This document shows positions 32,249-48,065 of a stretch of DNA of 58,280 nucleotides, one piece after another (the first letter of the stretch is position 1; each line of letters starts with the position of its first letter). The stretch is from an uncultured Anaerolineales bacterium (GTDB taxonomy: Bacteria > Chloroflexota > Anaerolineae > B4-G1). Position numbers and translations under genes: made by a program. The stretch is from NCBI GenBank assembly GCA_964568065.1, contig CAZMOT010000003.1, positions 1-58,280 of the forward strand, given 5' to 3'. The notes beneath the pieces were generated by a model. It worked only from the letters and a program-made list of their open reading frames with translations. It made no database searches and was not told where the DNA came from.

Positions 32249-32880
32249 AGCATCCCTCCCAGCAGGCGTGTGGACAACCGCTGCAGCTTGTCCATGACCG
32301 CCCGTAGTTTGCGATCGGTCAGGGCCAGGTGGCGATGACAGACGCTGTTGAACTCCTCGGCCAGTTCGAGCAAGCTCTCAGGGCTGGGATGTTCTTCCTT
32401 CAGTGCATTCTCTAACAACAGTTGCAGCGCGACGATTTCCACCACCCATCGCTCCCCGCGCAATTCACGCCCTTCCCGCCGGAATGGGCGGCCGATGTGC
32501 TCGATCTCCTCAGCAAAGTCCACCAGCATATCCACCCTATCCTGGCAGGGCCGCCAGTTCTGCAGCAATGCCTGGCGTTCGTCTGCACTAAAACCACCCT
32601 CCCCGAATGGGATAACCCGAGTATGGAACAGGGAGAAGGCGACCAGTACCTCGTGCAGCAGGTGATGCAATTCTTTCCAACCTGCCATCCGGGCCTGCAG
32701 AGCGGTGAGTTTCGCGATTACCTCGCATAGTTCAGCCTGTGCCTGTTCGTCGGTCGGCAGCGAGTGCTGGAGAGTTTCTCTTACCCTCTCGGCCATCCAC
32801 TCGATTTCTTCAACGTGAATTACGTCACCCATTCGCGCCTCGAAGTCGCCGCCTGTGGGTGTTGCTTCGGTATCGTCCAT
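32245..32880 (-). CDS. Hypothetical cytosolic alpha-helical protein
   Basis: 211-aa ORF with no recognisable motif. It appears translationally coupled on both sides. An alternative start is at 32832. Confidence 0.5.
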   Translation of the reverse strand: MDDTEATPTGGDFEARMGDVIHVEEIEWMAERVRETLQHSLPTDEQAQAELCEVIAKLTALQARMAGWKELHHLLHEVLVAFSLFHTRVIPFGEGGFSADERQALLQNWRPCQDRVDMLVDFAEEIEHIGRPFRREGRELRGERWVVEIVALQLLLENALKEEHPSPESLLELAEEFNSVCHRHLALTDRKLRAVMDKLQRLSTRLLGGML

Positions 32881-34465: not shown

Positions 34466-34738
34466 TTGGCCAATACAAAGTCAGCAATCAAGCGTCTCCG
34501 CAGTGCGGAGCGTAGACGCCAGCGCAACCAGATATATCGTGGACGGGCCCGCACTACCATCAAGAAGGCTCGACGTTTAATGGAGGAGGGTCGTCTTGAG
34601 GAGGCCCGCGAAGCCGTGAGCGTGGCGATCAGCGCGCTGGATAAAGCCGCTGAGAAGGGCATCATCCATAAGAATAACGCCGCCCGGCGCAAGTCGCGCC
34701 TGATGCGGCGGTTGAATCAGATCGAACGTGCCGCTTGA
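34466..34738 (+). CDS. rpsT: 30S ribosomal protein S20
   Basis: TTG start with a GGAGGG RBS at 34452-34457. MANTKSAIKRLRSAERRRQRNQ...AARRKSRL. Confidence 0.92.
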   Translation: MANTKSAIKRLRSAERRRQRNQIYRGRARTTIKKARRLMEEGRLEEAREAVSVAISALDKAAEKGIIHKNNAARRKSRLMRRLNQIERAA

Positions 34739-34769
34739 TGATGAGGAGGGCCGCGATTCAATCGTGAGA

Positions 34770-34804
34770 GCACTGTTGCCTTGTGCAATGGTGCTTTTGT
34801 TTTC
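34770..34804 (+). terminator. Intrinsic terminator of rpsT
   Basis: 10-bp stem (GCACUGUUGC/GCAAUGGUGC, including 2 G-U pairs), loop CUUGU, then UUUUGUUUUC. Confidence 0.7.
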
Positions 34805-34818
34805 TTGATATGCCTTAT

Positions 34819-34847
34819 TTGGAATCCAGCCACAAGTGGTGTACAAT
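34819..34847 (+). promoter_or_regulatory. Promoter of the gcvH-like gene (TTGGAA-N17-TACAAT)
   Basis: -35 at 34819-34824 and -10 at 34842-34847. GGTAGGAG RBS, ATG at 34867. Confidence 0.5.
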
Positions 34848-34866: not shown

Positions 34867-35298
34867 ATGCAGATCAACGGCTTCGAGTTCCCCGACGACC
34901 TGTACTATGATAAACTTCACGATTGGGCTCGGGTGGAGGGGAACGTAGTTACTCAGGGCTTGACCGAATTTGGCCAAGCGATCGCTCAGGAGATCGTTTT
35001 CGTCGAAGCCCCCCGCACCGGTCGGGAGGTCGAGCAGGGGCAAACCTTCATGTCCATGGAGTCAGGCAAGTGGGTCGGCCGCATTGCTGCTTTGGTCAGC
35101 GGCAAGGTCGCTGAGGTCAACGAGGAGCTAGAGTGGGAGCCCTCGCTGGTCAACGAGTCCCCCTACAAGGAGGGCTGGCTGGTCAAGATCGAGTTATCTG
35201 ATCTCTCCGAACTGGACAACCTGATGCAGGCCGATTCCCCAGAGCTGAAGGCCCTCATTGAGGAGGAAACGGAGAAGTACAAGGAAATCCTGGGTTAG
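34867..35298 (+). CDS. gcvH: Glycine-cleavage H-protein-like lipoyl carrier protein (GcvH/LbpA-like)
   Basis: HDWARVEGNVVTQGLTEFGQ..., a lipoyl-lysine region SMESGKWVG, and SPYKEGWLVKIE. No gcvT or gcvP lies nearby, so a role outside glycine cleavage is possible. Confidence 0.75.
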   Translation: MQINGFEFPDDLYYDKLHDWARVEGNVVTQGLTEFGQAIAQEIVFVEAPRTGREVEQGQTFMSMESGKWVGRIAALVSGKVAEVNEELEWEPSLVNESPYKEGWLVKIELSDLSELDNLMQADSPELKALIEEETEKYKEILG

Positions 35299-35484
35299 CA
35301 AGGTGCCTACCCGGAACCTGATTTTGATCCTCATATGCTGCCAAAACGGGCTCCGTGATGGATATAGCAGGCGCGGAACGCGATATCTGCCTTGTGGCAG
35401 GGCCTGGCAAGTGTGTAAGAAACATAGCAAATCGTCTGGAGAAACTTGCTCGACCCTATCGGCAGCGCAGGGGAAGGGCTGGAG

Positions 35485-35829
35485 ATGAAACTGGAGGAAC
35501 TGAGCTCTCAACTCTCATTGGAAGCGCGAACGGCGGCGGGGAAACTGGATACGGAAGTTACAGGCGGTTACGCTGCCGATCTGCTGAGTTGTGTGATGGC
35601 CCAAGCGCAGGCGGGCAACGTGTGGGTTACTCTGCAGGGGCATCCCAATATTGTGGCCGTGGCCAGCCTGCTCGGTCTGGCCGGCATCATCATTACCGAG
35701 GGAATGACTCCTGATGCCACTACCATAGAGAGGGCAGAGGAGGAAGGCATCCCCATTCTGACCACACAACTCACAACGTACACCGTCGTCGGCCGGTTGT
35801 TTGAGCTGGGTGTGCCAGGAGTGGATTAG
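35485..35829 (+). CDS. DRTGG-domain protein
   Basis: EVTGGYAADLLSCVM...VWVTLQGHPNIVAVASLLGLAGIIITEG...AEEEGIPILTT. GGAG upstream of ATG 35485. Confidence 0.7.
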   Translation: MKLEELSSQLSLEARTAAGKLDTEVTGGYAADLLSCVMAQAQAGNVWVTLQGHPNIVAVASLLGLAGIIITEGMTPDATTIERAEEEGIPILTTQLTTYTVVGRLFELGVPGVD

Positions 35830-35883
35830 TACAGCCCGGCGGGGATGAGTTGTCGGTGGATTTGACGAGGCTGGTCTGCCTGT

Positions 35884-36435
35884 ATGCGCGAGTTGAGTCT
35901 GCACATTCTGGACGCCCTGGAGAACTCGCTGGAAGCGGGGGCTACTGTCATTGAATTGATCGTTGAGGAAGACTTAGCTCTGGATCGGCTGACCATCATC
36001 ATTCGAGACAACGGTCGAGGGATGAGCGAGGCTCAACTGGCTCGCATTTTTGATCCCTTCTTCACCACGCGCAGCACGCGCCACGTTGGACTAGGTATTC
36101 CTCTCTTCAAAGCTGCCGCAGAACGCTGCAATGGGGATTTGACCATCACCTCGCAGTTGGAGGAGGGCACCACACTTCAAGCTACCTTCCAGCATAGCCA
36201 CATTGACCGCGCTCCCCTGGGCGACATGACAGGGACGCTGTTGGCGATTATCCTGTCGGGGTCGTGTGATGTGCATTATGTCCATCGGGCGGATGCCCAC
36301 CCGACGGGTGGAGGTGAGTTCGAATTTCACACAGCAGACATGCGAGCCGAGTTGGGGGAAGTACCGCTGACGCACCCGGCGGTGCGGAAGTGGCTGCAGG
36401 AGTTCATCGCCGAGGGAGAAAAAGAGTTGAGGTGA
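35884..36435 (+). CDS. GHKL/HATPase-like ATP-binding protein (anti-sigma-factor / kinase-like)
   Basis: HILDALENSLEAGA (N box), RDNGRGM (G1) and GLGIPLF (G2). There is no HisKA domain. Confidence 0.7.
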   Translation: MRELSLHILDALENSLEAGATVIELIVEEDLALDRLTIIIRDNGRGMSEAQLARIFDPFFTTRSTRHVGLGIPLFKAAAERCNGDLTITSQLEEGTTLQATFQHSHIDRAPLGDMTGTLLAIILSGSCDVHYVHRADAHPTGGGEFEFHTADMRAELGEVPLTHPAVRKWLQEFIAEGEKELR

Positions 36436-36477
36436 TCCATCCTGCCTAACTCGGTAGATTTTAAGGAGGCAATCGCG

Positions 36478-37671
36478 ATGACAGGGGAGAGTCTGGATCT
36501 GGCTAGTGCCACATTTGATCATTCATTCCTCGAAGCCATTGATCCGTCGGCGAACTTGCAGAGCTGCATACAGTGTGGCACTTGTTCTGCCACCTGCCCT
36601 ACGGCCTATGCCATGGACTACTCGCCACGGCAGGTGTGGCGCATAGTACAACTGGGTATGCGGGACAAGGTGTTAAATAGCCGCACCTTCTGGCTTTGCA
36701 CAACCTGTAAATCGTGCCAAGTACACTGTCCGCGGGGCATTGATCTGATGGATGCCATGATCGCCCTGAAGGAGTATTCTATTGGCAAAGACATCAACGT
36801 CCCTGAAGGGATGAAGATGTTTGGGGAGACGGTGGCTACCAGCTACAACATCTCCGGCGACGATAACAAGGAGCGCCAGATTTGGAGTCAGAACCTCGAC
36901 CACATTCCGCGTGGCGTCAAGCCCCGCCGCAGGAAGGCCGAGGTTCTTTACTTCATCGGCTGTGTCAGTTCCTTCTACCCCCGCGTCTACAGCATCCCCC
37001 AGGCGCTTGTGCAGATTATGGAGCGGGCTGACGTGGAGTTCACCACGCTGGGTGGCGACGAGTGGTGCTGTGGCTATCCCCTTCACATTGCCGGCATGGG
37101 CGCTCCGCTGGCGAAGTTGGCTCAGCACAATGTCAAGAAGGCACGAGCCGTGGGGGCCAAGAAGGTCGTCTTTACCTGCCCCTCCTGCTATTACGCCTGG
37201 GCGCATCTTTACCCCGAGGTCGCGGATGTTTCCGGTATCCAGTTGCAGCACTCCACCGAGTTCCTGGTCGATCTGGTCGCTGGCGACGGGCTCGCCCTCG
37301 GGCCGGTGGAAGAGGTGGTCACCTACCACGACCCCTGCGACCTGGGTCGCAAAAGCGGGGTCTACGATGCACCTCGTGAGCTGTTGGCCCTTATTCCAGG
37401 GGTGGACTTCCGCGAGATGTCGGCCATCCGCGAGGATGCGATCTGCTGTGGCGGCGGTGGCGACGTCGAAATCTCTGACCGCACTGTCTCCGTTGGCGTT
37501 GCCGCGCAACGGATGGCTCAGGTACAGGCCACCGACGCCAGCTACGTCATCTCCGCCTGCCAGCAGTGTAAGCGGACGTTGCAAGAGGGAGCTCGCCAGA
37601 ACAGGATTCGCGTCAGAGCCATGGACGTCGTCGAGTTGCTGTGGAACTCCATGCAAGCCGCCGAGGCGTGA
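36478..37671 (+). CDS. HdrD-like (fused HdrC/HdrB-like) iron-sulfur protein with two [4Fe-4S] motifs and two CCG-type cysteine-rich domains
   Basis: CIQCGTCSATCP and CTTCKSCQVHCP. The first Cys-rich unit is FIGCVSSF...CCGYP...CPSC and the second is YHDPCDLGR...CCGGGG...CQQC. Confidence 0.78.
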   Translation: MTGESLDLASATFDHSFLEAIDPSANLQSCIQCGTCSATCPTAYAMDYSPRQVWRIVQLGMRDKVLNSRTFWLCTTCKSCQVHCPRGIDLMDAMIALKEYSIGKDINVPEGMKMFGETVATSYNISGDDNKERQIWSQNLDHIPRGVKPRRRKAEVLYFIGCVSSFYPRVYSIPQALVQIMERADVEFTTLGGDEWCCGYPLHIAGMGAPLAKLAQHNVKKARAVGAKKVVFTCPSCYYAWAHLYPEVADVSGIQLQHSTEFLVDLVAGDGLALGPVEEVVTYHDPCDLGRKSGVYDAPRELLALIPGVDFREMSAIREDAICCGGGGDVEISDRTVSVGVAAQRMAQVQATDASYVISACQQCKRTLQEGARQNRIRVRAMDVVELLWNSMQAAEA

Positions 37672-37716
37672 GAGCGGGGAGTTGGTGAGCAAGCTGATCC
37701 CGATTGGGTCACTATA

Positions 37717-38481
37717 GTGCGCTTCTTTCTCGCTGACCTGCACATTCATACTGTCCTCTCGGCCTGCGCCGAGGCGGAGATGCTCCCGGAGTTCATCGTG
37801 GAGCGCGCCCAGGAACTGAACCTGGGTTTGATCACTGTCACTGATCACAACTCCGCGGAGAACGCGGCGGCAGTGCTCGCCGCCGCCGAAGGGACAGGTA
37901 TCACGGTATTGCCAGGAATGGAGGTACAGACGCGGGAGGAGGTGCACCTGCTCTGTCTGTTCGACACCCTGGAGCAGGTTGGGCTCTGGCAGGAGGAAGT
38001 CTATGCCCATCTCCCTCCCCTGAAGAACGACGAGGATGTGTTTGGGGCGCAGGTGGTGCTCGACGCTGAGGGGAGCGTCGTGGGACGTAACGATCGGCTG
38101 CTTTTGACCTCGACCTCATTTTCAATGGAAGAAGTCGTCCGAAGAGTCCACGACTTGAACGGTTTGTGTATCCCGGCCCACGTGGACCGGCCTGCCTACA
38201 GCGTCATCGCCAATCTGGGTTTCATCCCACCTGATTTGGAGATCACGGGGGTAGAGATCTCTCCTCTCGTCGGCCCGAAGGAGGCGCGTGCTCGCTTCCC
38301 GCAGTTGGAGCGCTACAGCCTGGTGGCTGGCGGCGACGCGCACCGTCTGCGGGAGATGGCCCGGCGCACGACGTTAAAGCTGGCGGAGGCGACGGTGGCT
38401 GAGCTTTCCCTGGCCCTTGCCAGTGAGGGGGACAGGGGTATCTGGGTGGATGGTATTCAGTCGGTAGGAAAGGGAGCTTGA
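37717..38481 (+). CDS. PHP-domain (polymerase/histidinol-phosphatase-like) metal-dependent phosphoesterase
   Basis: GTG start. ADLHIHTVLSACAE, ITVTDHNS and IPAHVDRP motifs. Confidence 0.75.
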   Translation: MRFFLADLHIHTVLSACAEAEMLPEFIVERAQELNLGLITVTDHNSAENAAAVLAAAEGTGITVLPGMEVQTREEVHLLCLFDTLEQVGLWQEEVYAHLPPLKNDEDVFGAQVVLDAEGSVVGRNDRLLLTSTSFSMEEVVRRVHDLNGLCIPAHVDRPAYSVIANLGFIPPDLEITGVEISPLVGPKEARARFPQLERYSLVAGGDAHRLREMARRTTLKLAEATVAELSLALASEGDRGIWVDGIQSVGKGA

Positions 38482-38487
38482 GACTAT

Positions 38488-38883
38488 CTACCAGAGGATA
38501 CTCACCAAACCGGATTGAGTGATCAGTGCGTCACGAGTAAGCAGTTGGGCATTCCATCGCAGTGCCTCGGAGACGATCAGGCGATCGAAGATGTCGGGAA
38601 TGGCGGTCAAAGTCGCGCTACTCAGTACGGTCTCAACGGAGAGCGGTGGCAGATGACAGACCGAATCGCGTTGGAGGCTTTGGACTACCCGTTGCAGGTC
38701 AGCCAGAGTGGCTTGTACCCGGCCTTTCTCGATCACATGACCATCTCAGCTACCACAATCACGGGTATGACCAACGTGGCCTGGCCCATTCCCACTTGGG
38801 CCAATGCGGCGTGTGCCCGCGCACTCTGGTTTGGGTTGAAGAAATACCAGAGTATAACGTGTGTCGGCTACATAGGTGGGCAT
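38488..38883 (-). pseudogene. PIN-domain (VapC-like) toxin gene disrupted by at least two frameshifts
   Basis: I translated the minus strand by hand. ATG at 38883 gives MPTYVADT. After a frame change in an ACACAC run it reads HVILWYFFNPNQSARAHAALAQVGMGQATLVIPVIVVAEMVM-stop. After a second frame change it continues as the track ORF IEKGR...DIFDRLIVSEALRWNAQLLTRD...ILW. Confidence 0.65.
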
Positions 38884-39152
38884 TATTCTGCGTTTTCTGC
38901 AAGGTTGGATATCAGCGAGCGCCAATGTGTTTCCGCTGCTTCCTGAGTGATTGCTCCGATCTCTTAAGTTGGATCACCCAGCTCTTTCCAGATACCTTGC
39001 AGGGCCGCGAAATCACTGGCGGGTGTATCTTGTGCGTCGGGGAGGACGATCTCGACTAATAGGGGCGTCTCTTCGGGCAGAGGTAATGGCGTCAAGGGAT
39101 ATAAAATCCCCTGGCGATAGATCACGTTCACGGTAATGGTTGTTTGTGTCAT
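38883..39152 (-). pseudogene. DUF104-like antitoxin gene with an in-frame premature TAA
   Basis: MTQTTITVNVIYRQGILYPLTPLPLPEETPLLVEI is antitoxin-like. The TAA at 38964-38966 is followed in the same frame by 26 more sense codons (EIGAITQEAAETHWRSLISNLAENAE). These end in a TAATG stop/start overlap with the PIN gene. Confidence 0.55.
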
Positions 39153-39219
39153 AACTCACCTCGATTTGATTGTACACTATTCTTGTGGCGCTGTCAATGC
39201 ACTCGCCTGGGGATAGGCT

Positions 39220-40365
39220 GTGAGTCTGTGGATTGAGATCGCATATCAGAGTCTCGCCAGAGCCGGCGAAGATGTGTGTTCTGACGTGGTAAGAACCTCT
39301 CAAAACGAAGAGCGGTTTTTCGCTATCCTCGCCTGTGGCCCGCAGGGCGGCGCGGAGGGAAAAGCAAAGGCGACGCTGATAGCAGATAAGGCGGCTTCCA
39401 TGCTGGCACAAAGGACGTCGCTTGACCTTGACAAGGTGGTGGAGAACCTGCTCGCCGTCCTGCCCCAGGGCGAGTATGTGCCCTTTTCCATCCTCCAGGT
39501 TCTTGGGGGATGTCGGGCCTACGTGGTGGAATGTGACACCCCTCCCCTGTTTCTGACCCGTGGTGGACAACTGGTGTTGCTGCCCGTGCTGGAGGAAATC
39601 TCCCATGGGCATCTGATCCGCGAGTGCCGGTTCCTCCTGCGGGATGGCGATCACCTGGCGATGGTCAGCGAGGGCTACCTGCGCCCCCGGGGCTGGGGAT
39701 GGAGCTGGGCCGACGTCGCCGTCGCCGTGCGGCGTTGGACCGACACCCGCTGTGACGCCGACGAACTGTCGGGTGCGCTGGTGCGCACTTACCGCCGCCT
39801 GAACCCTGAAGCTCCCCGGCAGGATGTGACCATCGTCGCCATGCACATCCGGCCGGAGCGCCGCGCCACCGTCTGGACTGGCCCGCCGGCCGATCCGGCG
39901 CAGGACGAGGTGACGCTGGACAAGCTGATGGCCGAACAGGGTGCGCGCATTATCTGCGGCGACACGACCGCGCAGATAGCCGCCCGGCTGCTGGGGGCCA
40001 AACTGGAGTTGGAACCGCGCCCCGAGGACGGCACGGATAAAAGACATTCGTGGGCGGAGGTGCCACCCGTCGCGAACCTGGAGGGGGTGAGCCTGGTCAC
40101 GGAGGGGCTGGTGACGCTGGGTAAGGCGCGGGAACGGATGGACGGAGCGCAGCGGTTGCGCGACTTGCCCCGGGGCGAAGATGGTGCCACGCGCCTGGCT
40201 CGTGCGCTGCTGATCGCCGATAAGATACACTTCATCGTCGGCCTGGCGGTGAACCCGCAGCAGGCCGATGAATCCGGCACTGTCCCCTTGCGCCGGTTGG
40301 TGGTGGAGGAACTGATCCGCGCTCTGAAAGCAGAGGGAAAACTGGTATCGGTTGAGTATCTGTGA
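39220..40365 (+). CDS. SpoIIE/PP2C-like serine phosphatase family protein
   Basis: 381 aa with a GTG start. The N-terminal half (GEDVCSD...FAILACG...LLRDGDHLAMVSEG...TIVAMHI) follows the PP2C/SpoIIE pattern. The family call is from memory of similar proteins in hydrogenase/Nuo-like operons. Confidence 0.6.
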   Translation: MSLWIEIAYQSLARAGEDVCSDVVRTSQNEERFFAILACGPQGGAEGKAKATLIADKAASMLAQRTSLDLDKVVENLLAVLPQGEYVPFSILQVLGGCRAYVVECDTPPLFLTRGGQLVLLPVLEEISHGHLIRECRFLLRDGDHLAMVSEGYLRPRGWGWSWADVAVAVRRWTDTRCDADELSGALVRTYRRLNPEAPRQDVTIVAMHIRPERRATVWTGPPADPAQDEVTLDKLMAEQGARIICGDTTAQIAARLLGAKLELEPRPEDGTDKRHSWAEVPPVANLEGVSLVTEGLVTLGKARERMDGAQRLRDLPRGEDGATRLARALLIADKIHFIVGLAVNPQQADESGTVPLRRLVVEELIRALKAEGKLVSVEYL

Positions 40366-40404
40366 TCTATGGACGAGGAAATGAAGATGGAAGGTAAGCG
40401 TTCA

Positions 40405-40425
40405 CCCCTCCCACCCAGGGAGGGG
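40405..40425. repeat. G/C-rich palindromic element (CCCCTCCC-accca-GGGAGGGG)
   Basis: Perfect 8-bp inverted repeat. It is related in sequence to the element at 40512-40536. Confidence 0.6.
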
Positions 40426-40511
40426 CGGGTGGAGGGTAGAGTCCCGGCAACCTGGCAGGGATACTGCAAATTCAACCGGTATATGGGACGCAATCTTCAC
40501 CCCCCACCCCA

Positions 40512-40536
40512 CCCCTCCCCCTGACAGGGGGAGGGG
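40512..40536. repeat. G/C-rich palindromic element (CCCCTCCCCC-tgaca-GGGGGAGGGG)
   Basis: Perfect 10-bp inverted repeat, the second copy of the same motif within about 110 nt (REP-like). Confidence 0.6.
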
Positions 40537-40549
40537 GCGAACGGTTACG

Positions 40550-40791
40550 ATGGCAGTACGGTGTAATTTCTGTGGTAGCGATCTCTGCGAAGAAAGGAGA
40601 ATCGACTATACAGCTACAAAGGGAAATACTTGTTGGTGCCGAACACTCCTGTCGAGGTATGCCTCGACTGTGGAATGGTTTACTATGATGTGGCTGTTCT
40701 CAAGGAGATTGAGCGACGCTTCTTCGCCATTCACCACAAGACGGAGAAGCCAGATTGTTACATTCAAGTGCCAGCAGTGTCATACACTTAG
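40550..40791 (+). pseudogene. YgiT-type (MqsA N-terminal-like) zinc-finger protein gene with a frameshift
   Basis: Frame 1 reads MAVRCNFCGSDL.... Another frame then carries YSYKGKYLLVPNTPVEVCLDCGMVYYDVAVLKEIERRFFAIHHKTEKPDCYIQVPAVSYT-stop at 40789-40791. The frame break lies near the GAAGAAAGGAG run. Confidence 0.55.
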
Positions 40792-40848
40792 GATGATCAG
40801 GACACTGCAAAGGCCACGGCCAAGGCGAAGCGGCTGATCAGTTCGATC

Positions 40849-41311
40849 GTGGCGTGGATGGCCTATCAGGAGGCACTGGAAGCGCGTACGGAGCCGGTCA
40901 CCCAGGCGGTGCTCATCGCCGGCATCCAGGCTGCGTTGACGATAGCAGATGCTGGCTATCCGGTCTACCTGGTCGAGCGGGAGCCTTCCATCGGCGGGCA
41001 CATGGCCCAACTGGACAAGACCTTCCCCACCCTCGACTGTAGCACCTGAATTCTCGGCTCCAACCAAGATGATGGATGCCGGTCGGCATCCCAAGATCAC
41101 GCTCCTGAGCCACAGCGAGGTCGAGCAAGTTTCGGGCTACGTGGGCAACTTCAAGGTCAAAGCGCGCAAGAAGGCCCGCTACGTGGACGAGGAGAAGTGC
41201 ACCGGCTGCGGTATTTGCCGGATCGAGTGCATGACAAGACGTATCCCGCGCCTGAAACTGATCAAGATGGGTGAGATTAGCGTTGGGGAGAGGAGGCCCG
41301 GAGAACAATGA
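40849..41311 (+). pseudogene. hdrA: Relic of an HdrA N-terminus (FAD-binding part), carrying TGA 41047-41049, a +1 frameshift, a lost GxGxxG and a truncation
   Basis: Frame 1 reads ...[52 protein letters not shown]. The +1 frame reads APTKMMDAGRHPKITLLSHSEVEQVSGYVGNFKVKARKKARYVDEEKCTGCGIC. The canonical VIGGG segment is missing. The relic ends by overlapping the nuoE-like start. Confidence 0.6.
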
Positions 41312-41853
41312 GTGAGATTCCGGTAAGCGAGATTCTCGACCGCTATCCGGCGGACAGAACTTCCAGTCTGGCTGTCCTGGAGGACATCCAGGCGGAGTAC
41401 AAGTACTTGCCCCGCGAGGCTCTGGAAGAGACAGCCGAACGGCTGCATATGTACCTGAGCGAGGTCTACCAGATCGCCACCTTCTTCCGGGCCTTCAGCC
41501 TGGAGCCAAAGGGTGAACACATGATCAAAGTGTGCCTGGGCACAGCCTGTCACGTTGCTGGCGGCCCACGCCTCCTCGACCAACTGGAGAGGGATCTGGG
41601 CATCAAGGCGGGGGGCACAACGCCCGACGGAAAGTTCTCCCTCGAGGCGGTCCGTTGCGTGGGTGCCTGTGCTCTGAGTCCTCTAATCTTGGTGGATGAG
41701 GAGCCCCATAGCAATATGACACCCGCCAAGGCCAGCGAGCTCATTGCGAAGATGGCCAGCGCGGGGGAAAAGGTGGGGGTTACCGAGGCGCCAACGGCTG
41801 ATGTGTCTTCGCGAACGTCGGTAGATCTTTCGGGTGTTCCGCCCACGGGATAG
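41308..41853 (+). CDS. NuoE/HydC-like [2Fe-2S] subunit of an NADH-dependent (bifurcating-type) complex
   Basis: IQAEYKYLP..., CLGTACHVAGG and VRCVGACALSP motifs. Confidence 0.85.
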   Translation: MSEIPVSEILDRYPADRTSSLAVLEDIQAEYKYLPREALEETAERLHMYLSEVYQIATFFRAFSLEPKGEHMIKVCLGTACHVAGGPRLLDQLERDLGIKAGGTTPDGKFSLEAVRCVGACALSPLILVDEEPHSNMTPAKASELIAKMASAGEKVGVTEAPTADVSSRTSVDLSGVPPTG

Positions 41854-41870
41854 GTAAAGGAGAGAGTTCG

Positions 41871-42242
41871 ATGCCAAAACTCAAGAGTCTCGAAGAACTG
41901 CACAAGTTGCGTCAGCAACTGCAAAAAGACATCAAGGCCCGCACTGAGACGAGCACAACCATCACCGTGGGCGTGGGCACCTGCGGTATCTCGACCGGGG
42001 CACGCGAAGTGATGCAATCAATCCTCGCAGAGTTGGAGGCACGCGATATTGATGCTCACGTGACCACCACTGGTTGTATTGGCATGTGCTCCAAGGAGCC
42101 CCTGGTGGATATCCAGCAGGGCGATGAACTGCGCGTCACCTACGGCAACGTCACCCCGGTGATAGTGCCCCACCTGATCGAGGAACACCTGGTGCAGGGC
42201 AACGTGGTGACCGAATGGGTCATCGGACGAGTAGGAGGGTAG
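41871..42242 (+). CDS. Thioredoxin-like [2Fe-2S] ferredoxin (HydD-like)
   Basis: AAGGAG RBS. VGVGTCGISTGA and TGCIGMCSKEPLV motifs. Confidence 0.75.
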   Translation: MPKLKSLEELHKLRQQLQKDIKARTETSTTITVGVGTCGISTGAREVMQSILAELEARDIDAHVTTTGCIGMCSKEPLVDIQQGDELRVTYGNVTPVIVPHLIEEHLVQGNVVTEWVIGRVGG

Positions 42243-42252
42243 GAGGGATAAA

Positions 42253-44049
42253 ATGGCTGAACGATATCGTGTTGACGTGCTGGTCTGCACCTGCCCGGCC
42301 TGTACAAAGGCCGGCGGGCCAGAAATGCAGCAGGCCCTGGAAGCAGAGGTGGAACGGCGTGGTCTAGCAAATGAGGTACGGGGGGTTGAAACGGGCAGCC
42401 GTGGTTTCTGCTCCATGGGGCCTATCGTCATCATCCAGCCCGAAGGTATCCTGTACTGCCAGGTGCACGCTGCGGATGTACCGGAGCTGGTGGAGGAGAC
42501 GCTGGTCAAGGGACGCATCGTCGAGCGTCTGACGTACAAAGAGCCAGCGACCCACAAGGCCGTACCTCACTACAGCGAGATTCCCTTCTACGGCAAGCAG
42601 ATGCGCGTCGTACTGCGCAACTGCGGGCTGATCAACCCCCAGAATATCGAGGAGTATATCGCCGTCGGCGGCTACCAGGCGTTGGGTAAAGCGCTCACCT
42701 CAATGACCCCCGAGGAGGTTATCGAGGAGGTCAAGAAATCGGGGTTACGAGGCCGTGGTGGGGCTGGCTTCCCCACCGGCCGCAAGTGGGAGTTCACCCG
42801 CGATGCCCCAGGCGACGTCAAGTACATCGTCGCTAACGGTGACGAGGGCGACCCCGGCGCCTTCATGGATCGCAGCCTGATGGAGGGTGACCCGCACGCT
42901 ATCCTGGAGGGCATGACCATCGGTGCCTACGCCATCGGCGCGCATGAAGGCCATATCTACGTGCGCGACGAGTACCCCCTGGCGCTGCGAAATCTGAACA
43001 TCGCGATGGAGCAGGCACGGGAGTATGGCCTGCTGGGCCAGGACATCCTGGGATCGGAGTTCGACTTCGACATCGAGATCACCCGAGGCGCTGGCGCCTT
43101 CGTCTGCGGCGAGGAGACGGCGCTGCTGGCCTCTATCGAGGGCCATGCCGGTGATCCGCGGCCGCGACCGCCTTACCCAGCCCAAAGCGGCCTGTGGGGC
43201 AGGCCAACCAACATCAACAACGTCAAGTCCTGGGCCAATATCCCGGTCATTATCAACCGAGGTGCAGATTGGTTCAACCAGATCGGCACCGAAACTAGTA
43301 GAGGGACAATGATCTTCTCGCTGGTGGGCAAGGTCAACAACGCCGGGTTGGTCGAAGTGCCTATGGGTATCACGTTGCGGGAGTTGATCTTCGACATTGG
43401 TGAGGGCATCCGGGATGGCAAGCAGTTCAAGGCGGTGCAGACGGGTGGGCCATCGGGCGGCTGCATCCCGGAGAAACTGCTCGACCTGCCGATTGACTAC
43501 GAACATCTGAAAGAGGCGGGCTCAATCATGGGCTCCGGAGGCATGATCGTCATGGACGAGAACACCTGCATGGTGGACATCGCCCGTTACTTCCTCGACT
43601 TCCTCAAGGACGAATCGTGCGGCAAGTGCACGCCCTGCCGTGAGGGGATCAAGCAAATGCTGGCTATCCTGACCCGCATCGCCGAGGGGGAGGGGGAAAT
43701 GGCCGATCTGCAGGTGCTGGAGTCGCTGGCCCACGTGGTGAAAGACACCTCGCTGTGCGGCCTGGGCCAAACGGCACCCAACCCCGTCCTCAGCACGCTG
43801 CGCTATTTCCGCGATGAGTACGTGGCCCACATTGTAGACCACAACTGCCCGGCTGGTGTCTGTGAGGCGCTGATCGAGTACTACATCATCGAGGATCTGT
43901 GCACCGGCTGCGGAGTTTGCCTCCACAAGTGCCCCCAGGAGGCGATCAGCGGGGAGAAGAAAGAGCTACACGTCATTGACCAGGCGTTGTGTATCAAGTG
44001 CGGCGTCTGCCGTGATCTATGCAAATTCGACGCAGTCGCTGTGCGGTAG
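42253..44049 (+). CDS. NuoF/HydB-like NADH- and FMN-binding subunit with an N-terminal Trx-like [2Fe-2S] domain and a C-terminal 2x[4Fe-4S] ferredoxin domain
   Basis: GLRGRGGAGFPTGRKW (FMN site), ANGDEGDPGAF, ESCGKCTPCREG, CTGCGVCLHKCP and CIKCGVCRDLC. Confidence 0.88.
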   Translation: MAERYRVDVLVCTCPACTKAGGPEMQQALEAEVERRGLANEVRGVETGSRGFCSMGPIVIIQPEGILYCQVHAADVPELVEETLVKGRIVERLTYKEPATHKAVPHYSEIPFYGKQMRVVLRNCGLINPQNIEEYIAVGGYQALGKALTSMTPEEVIEEVKKSGLRGRGGAGFPTGRKWEFTRDAPGDVKYIVANGDEGDPGAFMDRSLMEGDPHAILEGMTIGAYAIGAHEGHIYVRDEYPLALRNLNIAMEQAREYGLLGQDILGSEFDFDIEITRGAGAFVCGEETALLASIEGHAGDPRPRPPYPAQSGLWGRPTNINNVKSWANIPVIINRGADWFNQIGTETSRGTMIFSLVGKVNNAGLVEVPMGITLRELIFDIGEGIRDGKQFKAVQTGGPSGGCIPEKLLDLPIDYEHLKEAGSIMGSGGMIVMDENTCMVDIARYFLDFLKDESCGKCTPCREGIKQMLAILTRIAEGEGEMADLQVLESLAHVVKDTSLCGLGQTAPNPVLSTLRYFRDEYVAHIVDHNCPAGVCEALIEYYIIEDLCTGCGVCLHKCPQEAISGEKKELHVIDQALCIKCGVCRDLCKFDAVAVR

Positions 44050-44059
44050 GAGAAGACCC

Positions 44060-45868
44060 ATGGTTACTTTCACCATTGATGGACAAGAAGTTCAAGGCGA
44101 GGAAGGGCAGACCATCCTTGAGGTCGCTCAGCAGGTCGGGATCGAAATACCTACCCTCTGCTATCATCCTCTTCTCACGCCCTACGGCGGCTGTCGGCTG
44201 TGCACGGTGGAGATCGTCGCCAGGGGCAGGACAGGGCTGCAGACCGCCTGCACTTACCCGGCCGAGGAAGGGTTGGAGGTGCTGACCCGTTCCCCCGGCG
44301 TCGTCGAGGCGCGCAAGGTGATCCTGGGGCTGCTGCTTTCGCGCACGCCCAACGTCGAGGTGATGCAGGACCTGGCACGGGAGTACGGCATCACGGAACC
44401 ACCCTTCCCCACCGACACCCCCGACGAGCGGTGCATCCTCTGCGGCCACTGCGTGCGCACGTGCGACGAACTGGTCCAAGCCCACGTGCTGAACTTCTCC
44501 GAGCGGGGCATCGAACGGCGGGTGGGGCCGCCCTTCCTGGAAAAGACCCGCCAGTGCATCGGCTGCGGTGCCTGCACTATCGTCTGCCCCACCGGCGCCA
44601 TCGAGATCGCTCTGGAAGAAGCGGGGGTCTACCAGGCAAAGCCGCTGGGGCCGACTTCGGCCATCTATGTGCCTTCGCTGCAAGCGGTGCCGCAGGTGCC
44701 GGTCATTGATACCGACTCTTGTATTCGCTTCCGCCAGAACGATCGCACCGAGGGCGAGATCGCGGACGCCTGCGCGGCCTGCCAGATGCTGTGTGAGGCT
44801 GACGCGATCAACTTCGACCAGCAGGACGAGATCGTCGAGCTGGACGTGGGGGCCATCATCGTCGCTACCGGCTTCGAGATGTGGGATCCCACCCAGCTTT
44901 CCCAGTATTCCTACGGCAAGTCGCCCAACATCATCACCGGTATGGAGTTTGAGCGCCTCTCCAATGCCGGCGGGCTGACGGGCGGCAAGATCTTGCTCGC
45001 CGACGGCCGGGAGCCCGAGCGCGTGGCCATCATCCACTGCGTCGGCAGCCGTGACCACAACGCGCATCCCTACTGCTCCCGCATCTGCTGCATGTACTCG
45101 CTCAAACAGGCCCACCTGGTGCACGATAAAACCGGGGCCAAGGTGTACGAGTTCTACGTGGACATGCGCACCTTCGGCAAGGCCTACGAGGAGTTCTACG
45201 AGCGGGTGCAGAAGGAGAAGGGCATCTGTATGGTGCGCGGCCGGGGCGCCAGGGTAGAGGTGCTACCAGACGGCAAACTGCGCGTCAGGGGAGAGGATGC
45301 TAACCTGGGCCAGTTAGTGCACGTGGACGTGGACATGGTCGTGCTCAGCACGGCCATCGAGGCCCCGCACGACGCCGACCGGGTGGCGGCGCTCTTCGGC
45401 CTGGGCCGCACGGAGGACGGCTTCTTCGCCGAGGCGCACCCCAAACTGCGCCCGGTGGAGACCAACACCGATGGGGTATTCCTGGCCGGCGTTGCCCAAG
45501 GCCCCAAAGACGTGCCGGATACAGTGGCTCACGCCGGTGCGGCGGCCTCCATGGCCCTGGCTTTGCTGGGTAAGGGGGAAGTGACCATCTCGCCCGCCGT
45601 CGCCTGCGTGAATGAGAAACTCTGCTCCGCCTGCAAGACCTGCATCGCGCTCTGCCCCTACACCGCCATCAGTTTCATCGAGGAGATCGGTGAAAAGGGC
45701 GTGGCCCGCGTCAACGAGGTGCTGTGCAAGGGCTGCGGCACCTGCGCAGCAGCCTGCCCCTCCGGCGCCATCACGGCGCGGCATTTCACGGATCAGCAGA
45801 TCCTGGCTCAGATCGAGGGGCTGTTCCGCATGCCTGCGGCGCAACCTGCTGAAGGAGTACGCTCATGA
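44060..45868 (+). CDS. hdrA: Fusion of a NuoG/HydA-N-terminal-like Fe-S module with an HdrA-like flavoprotein body that lacks the HdrA N-terminal dinucleotide-binding segment
   Basis: N-terminus FTIDGQEV...PTLCYHP...GGCRLCTVE is a [2Fe-2S] motif. CILCGHCVRTC and CIGCGACTIVCPTGAI follow. The HdrA-like part reads AIYVPSLQAVP..., GAIIVATGFE, IIHCVGSRD, CSRICCMY and GVFLAGVAQGPKD, with a C-terminal CSACKTCIALCP...CKGCGTCAAACP. Confidence 0.78.
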   Translation: MVTFTIDGQEVQGEEGQTILEVAQQVGIEIPTLCYHPLLTPYGGCRLCTVEIVARGRTGLQTACTYPAEEGLEVLTRSPGVVEARKVILGLLLSRTPNVEVMQDLAREYGITEPPFPTDTPDERCILCGHCVRTCDELVQAHVLNFSERGIERRVGPPFLEKTRQCIGCGACTIVCPTGAIEIALEEAGVYQAKPLGPTSAIYVPSLQAVPQVPVIDTDSCIRFRQNDRTEGEIADACAACQMLCEADAINFDQQDEIVELDVGAIIVATGFEMWDPTQLSQYSYGKSPNIITGMEFERLSNAGGLTGGKILLADGREPERVAIIHCVGSRDHNAHPYCSRICCMYSLKQAHLVHDKTGAKVYEFYVDMRTFGKAYEEFYERVQKEKGICMVRGRGARVEVLPDGKLRVRGEDANLGQLVHVDVDMVVLSTAIEAPHDADRVAALFGLGRTEDGFFAEAHPKLRPVETNTDGVFLAGVAQGPKDVPDTVAHAGAAASMALALLGKGEVTISPAVACVNEKLCSACKTCIALCPYTAISFIEEIGEKGVARVNEVLCKGCGTCAAACPSGAITARHFTDQQILAQIEGLFRMPAAQPAEGVRS

Positions 45869-46401
45869 ACAGTACGGACTCTGAACCGAGAATCGTCGGC
45901 TTTCTGTGCAACTGGTGTACCTACGCCGCAGCCGACACGGCCGGTATCTCCCGCATGGAGCAGCCGTCCAACGTGGACATCATCCGCGTGATGTGCTCGG
46001 GGCGCATAGACCCGGTCTTTATCCTCAAGGCCTTCGCCGAGGGAGCCGACGTCCTCATCGTCTCAGGCTGCCACCCGCCCGGCGATTGTCACTATCAGGA
46101 GGGCAACTACAAGACCTTCCGCCGCATGCCGCTGGTGGAGGCGCTGCTGGCGCAGTACGGCATCGAGAAGGAACGCTTCCACTGGGGCTGGATCTCCGGC
46201 GCGGAGGCCCCTCAGTGGGCGCAACTAGTGCGCGAGTTCACCGTCCAGGTACACGACCTGGGGCCGGATGCGCCACCCGCTGAACACAACATCCTGGGGC
46301 TAATCCACAAGGTCGGTCTGGAGATCGATGGCAATGTGATCAGCAGCCGTGGAAAGGCTATGGACATCGTGGATATGCTGGGCGGCAAGACCATCCGGTA
46401 G
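45865..46401 (+). CDS. mvhD: MvhD/FlpD-like (methyl-viologen-reducing hydrogenase delta subunit family) protein
   Basis: ATGA overlap with the upstream gene. IVGFLCNWCTYAAAD...IRVMCSGRIDP...GADVLIVSGCHPGDCHY. Confidence 0.85.
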   Translation: MNSTDSEPRIVGFLCNWCTYAAADTAGISRMEQPSNVDIIRVMCSGRIDPVFILKAFAEGADVLIVSGCHPPGDCHYQEGNYKTFRRMPLVEALLAQYGIEKERFHWGWISGAEAPQWAQLVREFTVQVHDLGPDAPPAEHNILGLIHKVGLEIDGNVISSRGKAMDIVDMLGGKTIR

Positions 46402-46467
46402 ATTAGTCAGGGAGACCAATCTACCGATTTACCAGCTTACCAATCTACCTTTTCGAGAGCGATTGCT

Positions 46468-46944
46468 TTGAAGATATTGGTGCTGGGCCTGGGTAATCCG
46501 ATCCTGAGCGACGATGGAGTCGGGATTCACGTGGCGCGAGCAGTGGCGAAGCACTGTTCACAGGACGACGTGACTCTCACCGAAGCGAGCGTCGGAGGGC
46601 TGCGGTTGCTGGACGTCGTCGCTGGCTACGAACGGATCATCATGGTGGATGCAATTCAGACCCGCGACGGCAAACCGGGCGATCTTTATCGTCTGTCCCC
46701 CAATGACTTGAAGGTATCGTTGCATTCGAGCTCGACGCACGATCTTTCCCTGCCCGGCGCACTGGCCCTGGGTAGGAATCTGGGCATGACGTTGCCCGAC
46801 GATGAAGCCATCGTCATCATCGCCGTCGAGGTGGAGGACGTGCTGACGTTCGGTGAGGGATGCACGCCTGCGGTGGTAGATGCCATCCACCGGGCCGTGG
46901 AGGCAGTACTGGCTGAACTGGAGGATTTAAGATCGGCGGATTGA
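46468..46944 (+). CDS. [NiFe]-hydrogenase maturation endopeptidase family protein (HyaD/HycI/FrhD-like)
   Basis: TTG start. MKILVLGLGNPILSDDGVGIHVA...IIMVDA...HSSSTHDLSL. Confidence 0.78.
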   Translation: MKILVLGLGNPILSDDGVGIHVARAVAKHCSQDDVTLTEASVGGLRLLDVVAGYERIIMVDAIQTRDGKPGDLYRLSPNDLKVSLHSSSTHDLSLPGALALGRNLGMTLPDDEAIVIIAVEVEDVLTFGEGCTPAVVDAIHRAVEAVLAELEDLRSAD

Positions 46945-47030
46945 TGATTTGGGAACTTGATTGTCCGACTTCCGCGATCTGTGCTGCTGCGCCCCTGCCA
47001 AATCCGAAATCATAACAGAAGGCACACTGA

Positions 47031-48065
47031 ATGAAACTCTATCGTCTCAAAACCGTATCCTGGCAAGATTCCCAACTTCTCTATCACGCCCTGCCCCGCC
47101 TGGGCCGCGAGGGGGTGATCCTCTGTTCCCCTGCCACTACCTACGTCTGCAGTGGCTACTTCCAGGACGTGGGGCAGGAGGTGGACGTGGCGTTCTGCCG
47201 CGAGAACGACATTCCCATCTTCCGGCGAGAAGTCGGCGGTGGCGCGGTCTACCTGGACGGCGAGCAGCTCTTCTATCAGTTAATCATCCGCAAGGACAAC
47301 CCCTTGGCCCCTGCCAGCAAAGAGGCCTTCTACCGTAAGTTTCTCCAGGCCCCCATCGAGGCCTATCGGGCGCTGGGCATCCCCGCCGAGTACAAACCGG
47401 TCAACGACATCATCGCCAACGGGCGCAAGGTCTCCGGCAACGGCGTGGCCGAGATTGGCGAATACATCGTCCTCGTCGGCAATCTGATCGTGGACTTTGA
47501 CTACGAGATGATGGCCCGCGTGCTGAAGGTGCCCGACGAGAAGTTCCGCGACAAGGTCTACAAGACGATCTACGAGAACCTTTCAACCATCAAGCGAGAG
47601 ATTGGCGAGGTGCCACCGACCGATGAACTATGGACGCTGATGGCGGATAAATTCGCTGAGACGCTGGGCCCGCTGGAGGAGCACACGAAGGTGGACGAGG
47701 AATGGCGCGCCCAGGCGGACGAATTGGCGGCGCAGTTCCTCACCGATGAGTGGCTCCATCAGAAAAGGCATCCCCGTACCGACCGAGAGGTAAAGATCCG
47801 CGCTGGCGTGCAGGTTAGGCGTAAGATGCACAAGGCGTCCGGCGGCCTCATACGCGCTACGACCGAGGTGCAGGACGGTGTCATCGCTGCGGTGTCTCTT
47901 TCGGGGGACTTTTTCTTTTTCCCAGAAGAGAGACTGACCGACCTGGAGGCGGCGCTGGTAGACGTACGGGTCGAGGAAGTGGAGCAGGCCGTCGCCCGCT
48001 TCTACCAGGAGCACAGTATCGAAAGCCCTGGCGTAACGTCGGCGGATTTTGCGCAGGTAGTGTGA
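47031..48065 (+). CDS. Lipoate-protein ligase (LplA family)
   Basis: RREVGGGAVYLDGEQLFYQLI and NDIIANGRKVSGNGVAEIG (lipoyl-AMP-binding Lys region), plus a C-terminal accessory domain. Confidence 0.8.
   Translation: MKLYRLKTVSWQDSQLLYHALPRLGREGVILCSPATTYVCSGYFQDVGQEVDVAFCRENDIPIFRREVGGGAVYLDGEQLFYQLIIRKDNPLAPASKEAFYRKFLQAPIEAYRALGIPAEYKPVNDIIANGRKVSGNGVAEIGEYIVLVGNLIVDFDYEMMARVLKVPDEKFRDKVYKTIYENLSTIKREIGEVPPTDELWTLMADKFAETLGPLEEHTKVDEEWRAQADELAAQFLTDEWLHQKRHPRTDREVKIRAGVQVRRKMHKASGGLIRATTEVQDGVIAAVSLSGDFFFFPEERLTDLEAALVDVRVEEVEQAVARFYQEHSIESPGVTSADFAQVV

Follow-up and report, generated by a model that had tools for sequence, protein, structure and literature searches.

What a heterodisulfide reductase (Hdr)-like gene cluster is doing between a gene for a GcvH-like lipoyl carrier and a gene for a lipoate-protein ligase is the question raised by positions 34867-48065 of a 58,280-nucleotide stretch of DNA (hereafter the window; contig CAZMOT010000003.1, assembly GCA_964568065.1) from an uncultured Anaerolineales bacterium. 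The original prediction read these genes as a possible NADH-linked bifurcating complex acting on protein-bound lipoamide, and all the genes it named were recovered in place with Pfam and NCBIfam profiles, the structural run lying on the plus strand. Comparison with related loci leads to a modified answer. The cluster is of the BamDEFGHI kind and partly decayed in this genome, and the disulfide of the lipoylated carrier is, on balance, the probable substrate of its CCG-domain subunit HdrD. The functional link between carrier, ligase and Hdr proteins is well supported by the comparison of gene neighbourhoods, and the related genomes suggest that this carrier family, which has the lipoyl-lysine context GKW, serves as a disulfide substrate of Hdr-type reductases outside methanogens.

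The carrier gene (34867-35298, on the plus strand like every feature below unless stated otherwise; Pfam GCV_H, 1e-36) encodes a GKW-type protein of 143 amino acids with the motif TFMSMESGKWVGR and no cysteine. Upstream is rpsT, the gene for ribosomal protein S20 (34466-34738; tblastn, and Pfam Ribosomal_S20p in syntenic loci), which marks the rpsT-gcvH-like position; a terminator-like hairpin (34764-34800) and a promoter-like site (34819-34847) lie between the two genes. The Lpl(AB)-type lipoate-protein ligase at the other end (47031-48065) has a catalytic domain (Pfam LplA-B_cat, 5e-36) and an LplB-like C-terminal domain (Lip_prot_lig_C; NCBIfam LplB, 64.3 bits with a cut-off of 65). Its PDB matches are distant, and its C-terminus resembles LplB of T. 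acidophilum. The HdrD-like protein (36478-37671) is a fusion of HdrC and HdrB, both of which are among its PDB matches, with two CX2CX2CX3C cubane [4Fe-4S] motifs and two complete CCG domains (Pfam CCG 1e-29, two stretches). This protein has the full complement of cysteines of CCG reductases, as do the type-1, type-2 and membrane-linked paralogues described below.

Homologues assign the window to class Anaerolineae of the Chloroflexota. The proteins of the window were compared by tblastn with 80 genome loci; the fetched loci, designated by L-numbers, total 2.1 Mb and were picked around the family of the GKW GcvH-like protein. The cluster is syntenic in relatives: the same gene order recurs in dozens of Anaerolineae contigs, and the arrangement in the window is therefore not due to chance. 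Among the 36 Chloroflexota loci in which 6 kb or more of sequence is available downstream of the GcvH-like gene, the Lpl ligase was detected in 26, a CCG protein in 23 and HdrA in 11, and at least one of these in 34; no control set of canonical gcvH neighbourhoods stands behind these counts. Canonical gcvH genes are generally known to sit with gcvT and gcvP.

The clusters come in two main gene orders. Type-1 clusters comprise an accessory set (DRTGG, GHKL ATPase, PHP and 381-amino-acid proteins, seen in 30 genome loci), with or without HdrD, followed by the N-terminal half of HdrA (HdrA-N), NuoE, a ferredoxin-like protein (Fdx), NuoF, a NuoG::HdrA fusion protein (Fus), MvhD, MvhG and MvhA, and a hydrogenase maturation protease. 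Type 2 is a compact operon with the order GcvH, HdrD, HdrA-N, NuoE, (Fdx), NuoF, Fus and LplA (L037, L039, L043, L135 and L153; partial in L031, L034 and L055). Instead of adjoining rpsT, it is flanked by glmS paralogues on one side and a two-component system on the other, and the stop codon of Fus overlaps the start of LplA. The window cluster is of type 1 (83-88% identical, against 62-74% to type 2), placed between GcvH and LplA, and GcvH is also followed by a type-1 cluster in L081, L086/L087/L097 and L170.

A membrane module is found next to the same carrier. A NarI-like membrane cytochrome b is encoded immediately after GcvH in 21 loci, and a second HdrD paralogue (HdrD') comes after it in all except 3 of these. 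This NarI-HdrD' module is HdrED/DsrMK-like and often succeeded by LplA, and some loci add multihaem cytochromes or a Psr-like molybdoenzyme. In four loci (L143, L162, L165 and L167) both soluble HdrA/MvhD proteins (with or without MvhA) and the membrane module surround one GcvH gene. The CCG domains are nearly identical between the soluble and the membrane-linked HdrD paralogues, which fits a shared substrate. LipS1/LipS2/LipT-like genes occur together with HdrBC in L082, L144 and L165, and LipS-like, LipT-like and DUF116-Lpl genes adjoin GcvH in these three loci and in L174. In other phyla a CCG protein is encoded within about 7 kb of the GKW gene in five of five contexts (within 4 kb in three), and proteins with HdrA and/or MvhD domains are also present in four of the five.

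The carrier itself differs from the H-protein of glycine cleavage at the residues that matter for that reaction. The Chloroflexota proteins form a tight family (143 amino acids, 81-88% identical, without cysteine) in which TFMSMESGKWVGR is invariant across 16 aligned relatives, and the lipoyl-lysine lies in the context ESGKWVGRIA, in contrast to the canonical ES(V/T)KA. Glu12, Glu14, Ser67, Asp68 and Tyr70 of Escherichia coli GcvH hold the aminomethyl-lipoyl arm (PMC7733448). At these sites the carrier family has Leu, Asp/Ser/Gly/Asn, Gly, Arg and Ala/Pro, respectively. In an exhaustive search of 1.8 billion representatives, of which the best 150 clusters were inspected, 38 clusters combine E-x-G-K-W-x-G with a residue other than Glu in the HxW motif and R, K or P four residues after the lysine (K+4). 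The 68 canonical clusters have ESVKA, with HEW or HDW in 54 of 57 readable cases and D or E at K+4 in 64 of 68. LbpA, the lipoate-binding protein of the sulfur-oxidation (sHdr) system, has two strictly conserved cysteines near its N- and C-termini (PMC6067878); the carrier and its close relatives have none, although the dedicated Lpl(AB) ligase is a trait they share with LbpA. Judged from these sequence comparisons, the GKW carriers are a distinct, previously unrecognised family, apparently neither canonical GcvH nor LbpA. They were also found in Desulfocarbo/Desulfarculales, Thermodesulfobacteriota, Altiarchaeales, Coprothermobacterota and Syntrophomonadaceae. A role of GcvH in [FeFe]-hydrogenase H-cluster maturation (PMC12752695) was considered and rejected, as no [FeFe] hydrogenase or hydEFG genes were found and the aminomethyl cavity is altered.

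Two further gene arrangements involve the H-protein fold. A 1391-amino-acid protein among the representatives (P0241) combines three GcvH-like domains, all without the lipoyl-lysine, with an FAD-linked oxidase domain and, at its C-terminus, an HdrD-like part with two [4Fe-4S] and two CCG domains; it is a putative Rosetta-stone-type link that ties CCG reductases to the H-protein fold. In L174 the corresponding genes are separate, in the order GcvH, FAD oxidase, HdrD-like protein.

The redox genes between carrier and ligase resemble a known machinery. The NuoE/HydC (BfuC)-type [2Fe-2S] subunit (41308-41853; Pfam 2Fe-2S_thioredx, 8e-48; NCBIfam NuoE/HoxE models) is followed by a small thioredoxin-like [2Fe-2S] ferredoxin-like protein (41871-42242; weak Pfam, 1e-4, and weak NCBIfam matches, 48-83% identity in relatives) and by the NuoF/HydB (BfuB)-type subunit (42253-44049). 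At the level of Pfam and NCBIfam profiles, the latter has the architecture of an N-terminal 2Fe-2S domain, an FMN/NADH site and two C-terminal [4Fe-4S] clusters. Its full-length PDB matches are 7T2R_B, the best at 895 bits and from the bifurcating NiFe-HydABCSL, 7Q4V_B and 9N5U_B, which bears out the bifurcating-type NuoEF module (HydBC/Bfu type) of the original prediction. The next gene encodes a fusion of 602 amino acids (44060-45868; Pfam; NCBIfam HdrA2 model positions 240-647) that was found in more than 120 clusters at 76-86% identity. The NuoG/HydA iron-sulfur domains span residues 1 to about 200 and resemble 9MQX_A (NuoG-like) and 8A6T_A. The remainder corresponds to HdrA from about HdrA residue 223 to its end, made up of the rest of the TrxR-like domain and the C-terminal ferredoxin domain (residues 223-658 of PDB 8RVU/5ODC). 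BfuB architecture, NuoE-like BfuC and BfuA-type N-terminal clusters, the features of the Bfu/HydBC family, are thus all present. The last structural gene encodes the MvhD [2Fe-2S] adaptor (45865-46270; Pfam FlpD 1e-47 at residues 10-133; MvhD chains in PDB at residues 6-135).

Comparison of domain content shows that the cluster corresponds to a predicted soluble iron-sulfur flavoprotein complex of the BamDEFGHI kind. BamDEFGHI serves class II benzoyl-CoA reductase as its electron module ('Bam-Bfu'; Schut et al. 2022; PMC9304861), and the Bam enzyme was lately solved (bioRxiv 10.64898/2026.04.10.717634). In that enzyme, NADH and reduced ferredoxin feed an HdrA-type flavin that bifurcates to BamD and the tungsten module (PMC9304861; bioRxiv 10.64898/2026.04.10.717634). 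The counterparts in Geobacter metallireducens are BamG for NuoE, BamH for NuoF, BamI for the NuoG N-terminus, BamF for MvhD, BamE for HdrA and BamD for HdrD, and a selenocysteine is also present in the HdrA-type module (BamE/F). The suggestion that the module combination might be undescribed therefore falls, as NuoEF, NuoG-N, MvhD, HdrA and HdrD are already known together as BamDEFGHI. There are differences from Bam, however. The cluster has no BamBC tungsten module, and no AOR-type (BamB) or BamC-like gene was found in the window or in the relatives' clusters; NuoG-N is fused to the C-terminal part of HdrA, and HdrA is split, not duplicated; both CCG clusters of HdrD are complete, while most BamD proteins have a degenerate distal one; MvhAG and FdhAB are additional components in relatives; and the partner is a lipoyl carrier, in Bam an ETF.

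In this genome the HdrA part is broken. The relatives have an intact hdrA-N of about 280 codons upstream of nuoE, and its product aligns to residues 1-256 of Methanothermococcus HdrA (5ODC; E 9e-104). With the fusion covering residues 223-658, HdrA is therefore split, with nuoE, fdx and nuoF between its halves. In 66 of 71 HdrA-N homologues an in-frame TGA stands at the known cysteine/selenocysteine position (FPTLDCST-U-ILGPK), and a conserved hairpin 3' of it, GGATGCC-GGTC-GGCATCC, looks like a bacterial selenocysteine insertion sequence (SECIS) element (TGA and hairpin at 41047-41100 in the window, 6990 in L001, 7314 in L039, and in 60+ other loci). Gene callers break hdrA-N into open reading frames (ORFs) of 195 and 80 amino acids. 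The complete set of HdrA features (N-terminal Cys-cluster domain, TrxR-like FAD domain with GxGxxG, the cysteine or selenocysteine of FPTxDCSxC/U, and inserted and C-terminal ferredoxin domains) was found in L001, L039, L086 and L170; in the window only the part from about 223 to 658, in the fusion, is present.

The hdrA-N of the window (about 40798-41311) is a true pseudogene; the N-terminal HdrA relic of the original prediction is thus the N-terminal half of a split selenocysteine HdrA. Its first 107 or so codons are gone, with a decayed zinc-finger gene in their place, a 15-nt deletion takes out VVGGG of the FAD-binding motif, and the reading frame is shifted by a 4-nt duplication (CCAA) between the TGA, which is kept at 41047, and the hairpin. 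L081, an independently assembled close relative (GcvH 97% identical), has the same 15-nt deletion, so the loss is real and predates the split between the two. Given three lesions and this shared deletion, errors of sequencing or assembly were rejected as an explanation of the frameshifts. L081 has a further deletion of its own in hdrA-N, and an insertion sequence (IS) fragment; the latter, part of an IS630-like transposase gene (15401-15956), lies exactly at the 15-nt deletion, where the contig ends. This fragment suggests that the lesion was IS-mediated.

The hydrogenase has also been lost. All 22 relatives in which mvhD and the protease gene are both visible have intact mvhG and mvhA in the 2.5-5.8 kb that separate these two, and some relatives add fdhAB to the cluster. 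The gap is 66 nt in the window, with about 250 nt of [NiFe]-hydrogenase remnants (46157-46395; tblastn with MvhG and MvhA of L001). Residues 1-37 of MvhG (46157-46267, 84% identity) overlap the MvhD ORF, and residues 118-163 of MvhA (46258-46395, 83% identity) make up the last 45 or so codons of that ORF, which runs to 46401. No Mvh-type subunit gene is thus present beyond fragments of 37 and 46 residues, and the deletion of mvhGA leaves the HycI-type [NiFe]-hydrogenase maturation endopeptidase (46468-46944; Pfam HycI 5e-15; TIGR00072, 118 bits) an orphan. Dependence on NADH rather than H2, as originally proposed, is accordingly not an ancestral trait: the ancestors had MvhAG (with or without FdhAB). 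With hdrA-N dead and mvhGA deleted, both HdrA-type bifurcation and H2 coupling are lost in this genome.

Some of the remaining genes are still under selection. Compared with L081, which has the same hdrA-N lesion, HdrD is under purifying selection (P = 1.6e-4), four cluster genes jointly give an omega of 0.33 (P = 6e-7), and the GHKL ATPase-like gene has a dN/dS of 0.26. These estimates cover GcvH, HdrD and the accessory set. As these genes stayed constrained after the death of hdrA-N, part of the system presumably still works. The present complex may be a plain, non-bifurcating wire from NADH (or ferredoxin) to the lipoyl carrier through the remaining iron-sulfur clusters. The window copy shows such a cluster shedding its hydrogenase and bifurcating flavin and keeping carrier, ligase and CCG subunit.

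We therefore put forward, as the reading that is probably right though with appreciable room for doubt, that the dithiolane disulfide of the lipoylated carrier would be the thiol/disulfide substrate of the CCG subunit HdrD in a BamDEFGHI-kind complex. In intact relatives, electrons from NADH and reduced ferredoxin (NuoEF), H2 (Mvh) or formate (Fdh) would flow through the HdrA flavin to the carrier, which may in turn hand them on to quinone by way of the NarI-HdrD' module of the membrane. A wider proposal is more tentative and, in our estimate, would have to overcome considerable doubt: GKW H-proteins might be widespread lipoyl redox carriers and the physiological dithiol/disulfide substrate of CCG-Hdr enzymes outside methanogens, reduced by soluble HdrA complexes with H2, formate, NADH or ferredoxin as input and re-oxidised to the quinone pool by membrane NarI-HdrD modules (DsrMK/HdrED-like). 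Such a cycle would parallel that of CoM-S-S-CoB or DsrC, with the disulfide bound to a protein, and the four loci with both modules around one GcvH gene fit it.

Several points weigh against the carrier as substrate of this complex. The rpsT-GcvH pair is a conserved position, and in L084 and L104 nothing relevant follows it. Most type-1 clusters are not beside GcvH, which holds for most loci with enough upstream sequence, and flanks limited to 10 kb would hide a GcvH gene just upstream in many others; HdrD is present in only 7 of 30 type-1 clusters. The metagenome loci are in many cases related or redundant, and their counts suggest more independence than there is. The selection data exclude nuoE through lplA, for which no close relative provides coverage. 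GKW proteins score at or above curated GcvH thresholds and could for this reason be the only H-protein of their cells. Finally, lipoamide has a potential of about -290 mV, and is therefore a weak high-potential acceptor for NADH-driven bifurcation. Schemes assisted by H2 or ferredoxin, or the reverse direction (confurcation), are more plausible.

The first two of these points count equally for a coincidence, in which rpsT-gcvH-lplA is a housekeeping lipoylation locus where redox clusters were inserted repeatedly without any functional tie. The position of rpsT upstream of GcvH in 47 of 70 loci, the direct adjacency of GcvH and LplA in many loci (L088, L090, L093 and others) and the toxin-antitoxin and IS debris in the window and L081, which marks the locus as recombinogenic, fit this explanation as well. 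We nevertheless regard it as unlikely. The type-2 operon has GcvH and LplA at its ends although it lies away from rpsT, with GlmS genes upstream and the Fus/LplA overlap, CCG proteins occur in 23 of the 36 loci, the 21 loci with NarI-like proteins directly after GcvH mostly continue with HdrD', and the same linkage is found in five other phyla without rpsT.

It is also rather improbable that the carrier is a true glycine-cleavage H-protein, with the Hdr modules replacing the L-protein and coupling glycine cleavage or synthesis to NAD, ferredoxin or quinone. Profiles and structures favour this explanation. The carrier scores 126 bits with Pfam GCV_H and 134 bits with the subfamily model NF002270 (cut-off 117), and falls just short of the cut-off of the equivalog TIGR00527 (110.8 bits, cut-off 115.85); other GKW members score 97-127 bits, several above the TIGR00527 cut-off; and its best PDB matches are bona fide GcvH (E about 1e-26). 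Curated libraries do not set the GKW class apart from GcvH. A second gcvH was not seen, within a scope short of whole genomes: no canonical ESVKA-type motif was found in the 2.1 Mb, which is uninformative as the loci were chosen around this family. Against an H-protein stand the replaced aminomethyl-arm residues and the R, K or P at K+4, as well as the neighbourhoods: gcvT/gcvP domains were absent from 15 Pfam-labelled neighbourhoods and from the ORFs scanned in L001, L039, L116, L117, L146, L155, L162 and L165, the other loci having been compared with the cluster's own proteins only, so that gcvT/gcvP would go unseen there. The other window ORFs of suitable size that were scanned (smaller ones not all) include no gene for GcvT, GcvP, E2, Lpd or a hydrogenase subunit, in agreement with the original prediction apart from the MvhG and MvhA fragments.

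An active NADH-dependent, HdrA-based bifurcating complex that reduces lipoyl-GcvH in this organism is still less probable, and we give it little credence. NuoE, NuoF, the fusion, MvhD and HdrD retain their full length, at 83-88% identity with their counterparts in relatives, and HdrD is under purifying selection, as would suit such an enzyme. However, hdrA-N has three independent lesions, including the loss of the FAD glycine motif shared with L081, and the fusion lacks HdrA residues 1 to about 222. As hdrA-N is a pseudogene, the flavin site cannot form and the complex cannot be an HdrA-type bifurcator. NADH bifurcation onto lipoamide and ferredoxin would moreover be thermodynamically unfavourable, judged from standard potentials. 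Of the originally proposed Hdr-like complex with a lipoyl carrier, the linkage of carrier, ligase and CCG protein thus stands (34 of 36 loci) and HdrA bifurcation in this genome does not. Sulfur oxidation by sHdr-LbpA as in Hyphomicrobium and Thioalkalivibrio can be rejected as very improbable, despite the GcvH-like protein with its dedicated ligase and the LipS1/LipS2/LipT-like genes of L082, L144, L165 and L174, since the carrier is free of cysteine, the neighbouring HdrA is of the long methanogen type with ferredoxin domains and selenocysteine, not the short sHdrA, and no DsrE, TusA or rhodanese was found among the annotated neighbours of the carrier loci.

Other known systems share parts of this arrangement. 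The sHdr-LbpA system with sLpl(AB)/LipS1/LipS2/LipT (Cao et al. 2018; Tanabe et al. 2023), whose link between LbpA and sHdr is established (PMC6067878, PMC10332631), likewise combines a lipoylated GcvH-like protein, a dedicated ligase and Hdr CCG proteins, and some relatives of the window cluster have LipS1/S2/LipT genes beside the carrier. It differs from the present clusters, whose HdrA has MvhD, NuoEF or hydrogenase partners and is of the long bifurcating type, and which belong to anaerobic Anaerolineae and further strict anaerobes. HdrA (with selenocysteine), MvhD, the MvhAG remnants and the maturation protease closely match MvhAGD-HdrABC of methanogens, and the relatives' GcvH followed by a NarI-like cytochrome b and an HdrD-like protein resembles HdrDE/DsrMK. 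Unlike in these systems, no coenzyme M/coenzyme B or DsrC genes are in view, a fused HdrD takes the place of HdrBC, and NuoEF is added. NiFe-HydABCSL of Acetomicrobium mobile (7T2R) and the Bfu family have the closest PDB match to NuoF and the same NuoE and NuoG-N architecture, but the third module there is HydSL on HydA, whereas here it is HdrA/MvhD/HdrD, with an Mvh-type hydrogenase in relatives. A GcvH gene within an Hdr cluster has been described in the Ehe/HdrA2B2C2-GcvH locus of Culexarchaeia (Kohtz et al. 2022, PMC9723716), where one sentence proposes that GcvH may carry an unknown disulfide for HdrB (PMC9723716). That cluster is archaeal and linked to a membrane-bound hydrogenase, has neither NuoEF nor a bracket with a ligase, and was described without an analysis of carrier subfamilies. 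A study of acetogens weighed GcvH/LpdA as a partner of MetVF and dismissed it (PMC8760232). In the literature searched, the coverage of which is incomplete, we found no description of the GKW subfamily, the type-2 operon or the split NuoG::HdrA, and nothing specific on DRTGG/PHP/HATPase sets around hydrogenases, on a GcvH-Hdr link in Anaerolineae or on a Bfu-HdrA combination.

Enzymes like HdrABC and HdrD are widespread among anaerobes that are not methanogens, such as sulfate reducers, syntrophs, acetogens, Chloroflexota and many archaea, and as their thiol/disulfide substrates are mostly unknown, models of the energy metabolism of these organisms are blocked. The GKW carrier, which pipelines label 'GcvH', is a concrete and easily expressed candidate substrate with its own ligase. 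If the proposal is correct, lipoate would gain a new role in the energy conservation of anaerobes, as a carrier of electrons, the annotations of genes as 'glycine cleavage H' would need correcting in thousands of cases, and orphan Hdr complexes would have a defined assay. The interest lies mainly in the family-wide association, less in the decayed copy of the window.

The accessory genes are conserved in position. The DRTGG-domain protein (35446-35829; Pfam DRTGG 3e-9; start codon uncertain), which keeps its place in type-1 clusters, and the GHKL (HATPase_c) ATPase-like protein (35884-36435; Pfam 8e-18), syntenic in relatives, may be accessory or regulatory. They are joined by an accessory PHP-domain protein (37717-38481; Pfam PHP 1.5e-9; syntenic in relatives) and by the conserved 381-amino-acid protein (39220-40365; syntenic in 30 loci), which is possibly PP2C/SpoIIE-like. 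The window copy of the latter has no Pfam or NCBIfam match, and a PDB profile search was also empty; the earlier SpoIIE-like call finds some backing in 6 of 12 orthologues, which match SpoIIE weakly (best E 1.2e-4). Between the PHP and 381-amino-acid genes lies a vapBC-like toxin-antitoxin pair on the minus strand (38534-39152; located by tblastn with the L081 genes), of which L081 has an intact copy and the window a half-decayed one. Of the toxin-antitoxin genes previously called decayed, only the PIN toxin (38534-38883) is frameshifted, with 64% and 100% identity in two frames to the L081 toxin, in which Pfam PIN is seen; the antitoxin ORF (38964-39152) is intact and 95% identical. A decayed zinc-finger remnant (40550-40830; three-frame translation) was assigned to the YgiT/MqsA-like family by eye, not by profile. 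Its CxxC...CxxC is split over two frames, and the stretch is missing from L081 and L170 in the alignment.

The flanks of the cluster are unrelated to it: two minus-strand genes and rpsT upstream, and an S1-domain protein, prmA, dnaJ and dnaK downstream. The minus-strand region 30779-34336 encodes two to three conserved proteins without Pfam match (about 490 and 220 amino acids), which are syntenic with rpsT-gcvH across Anaerolineae (L081, L082, L084, L088). The S1 protein (48443-50227) has four S1 domains and an acidic C-terminal tail of about 200 amino acids with imperfect repeats of GDEAVEEE[A/T]AAPEA.

Other gene arrangements were seen around the carrier in relatives. In L170 (6984-10004 and 15071-18178), which is the closest relative, NuoF and a GltD/NfnB-like domain form a single protein of 1006 amino acids, there is no hydrogenase, and the cluster goes on with HdrC, HdrB and a double HdrA-like protein of 1035 amino acids reminiscent of BamE. 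A Psr/Phs-like molybdopterin oxidoreductase (PsrABC-like) with a NarJ-like chaperone lies between GcvH and HdrD'-LplA in L117 (10531-18740) and L158, and a multihaem cytochrome c::NarI fusion is encoded in the same interval, placing a respiratory reductase module at the carrier locus. In the Coprothermobacterota locus L173 (8001-16417), GKW-GcvH is followed in order by LplA, fumarate hydratase alpha and beta, a GltD::HdrA::MvhD fusion of 1229 amino acids, HdrC and HdrB, and methylmalonyl-CoA pathway genes adjoin the cluster, which hints at a thiol:fumarate-reductase-like use of the carrier. The Altiarchaeales locus L172 (2906-11319), in which GKW-GcvH heads FwdA-, FwdC- and FwdD-like genes, HdrA::MvhD, HdrC and HdrB, is by its predicted gene content an Hdr-Fwd-type arrangement in a non-methanogen archaeon, and fits the reported transfer of Lpl ligases from Altiarchaeota to Chloroflexota (PMC10332631).

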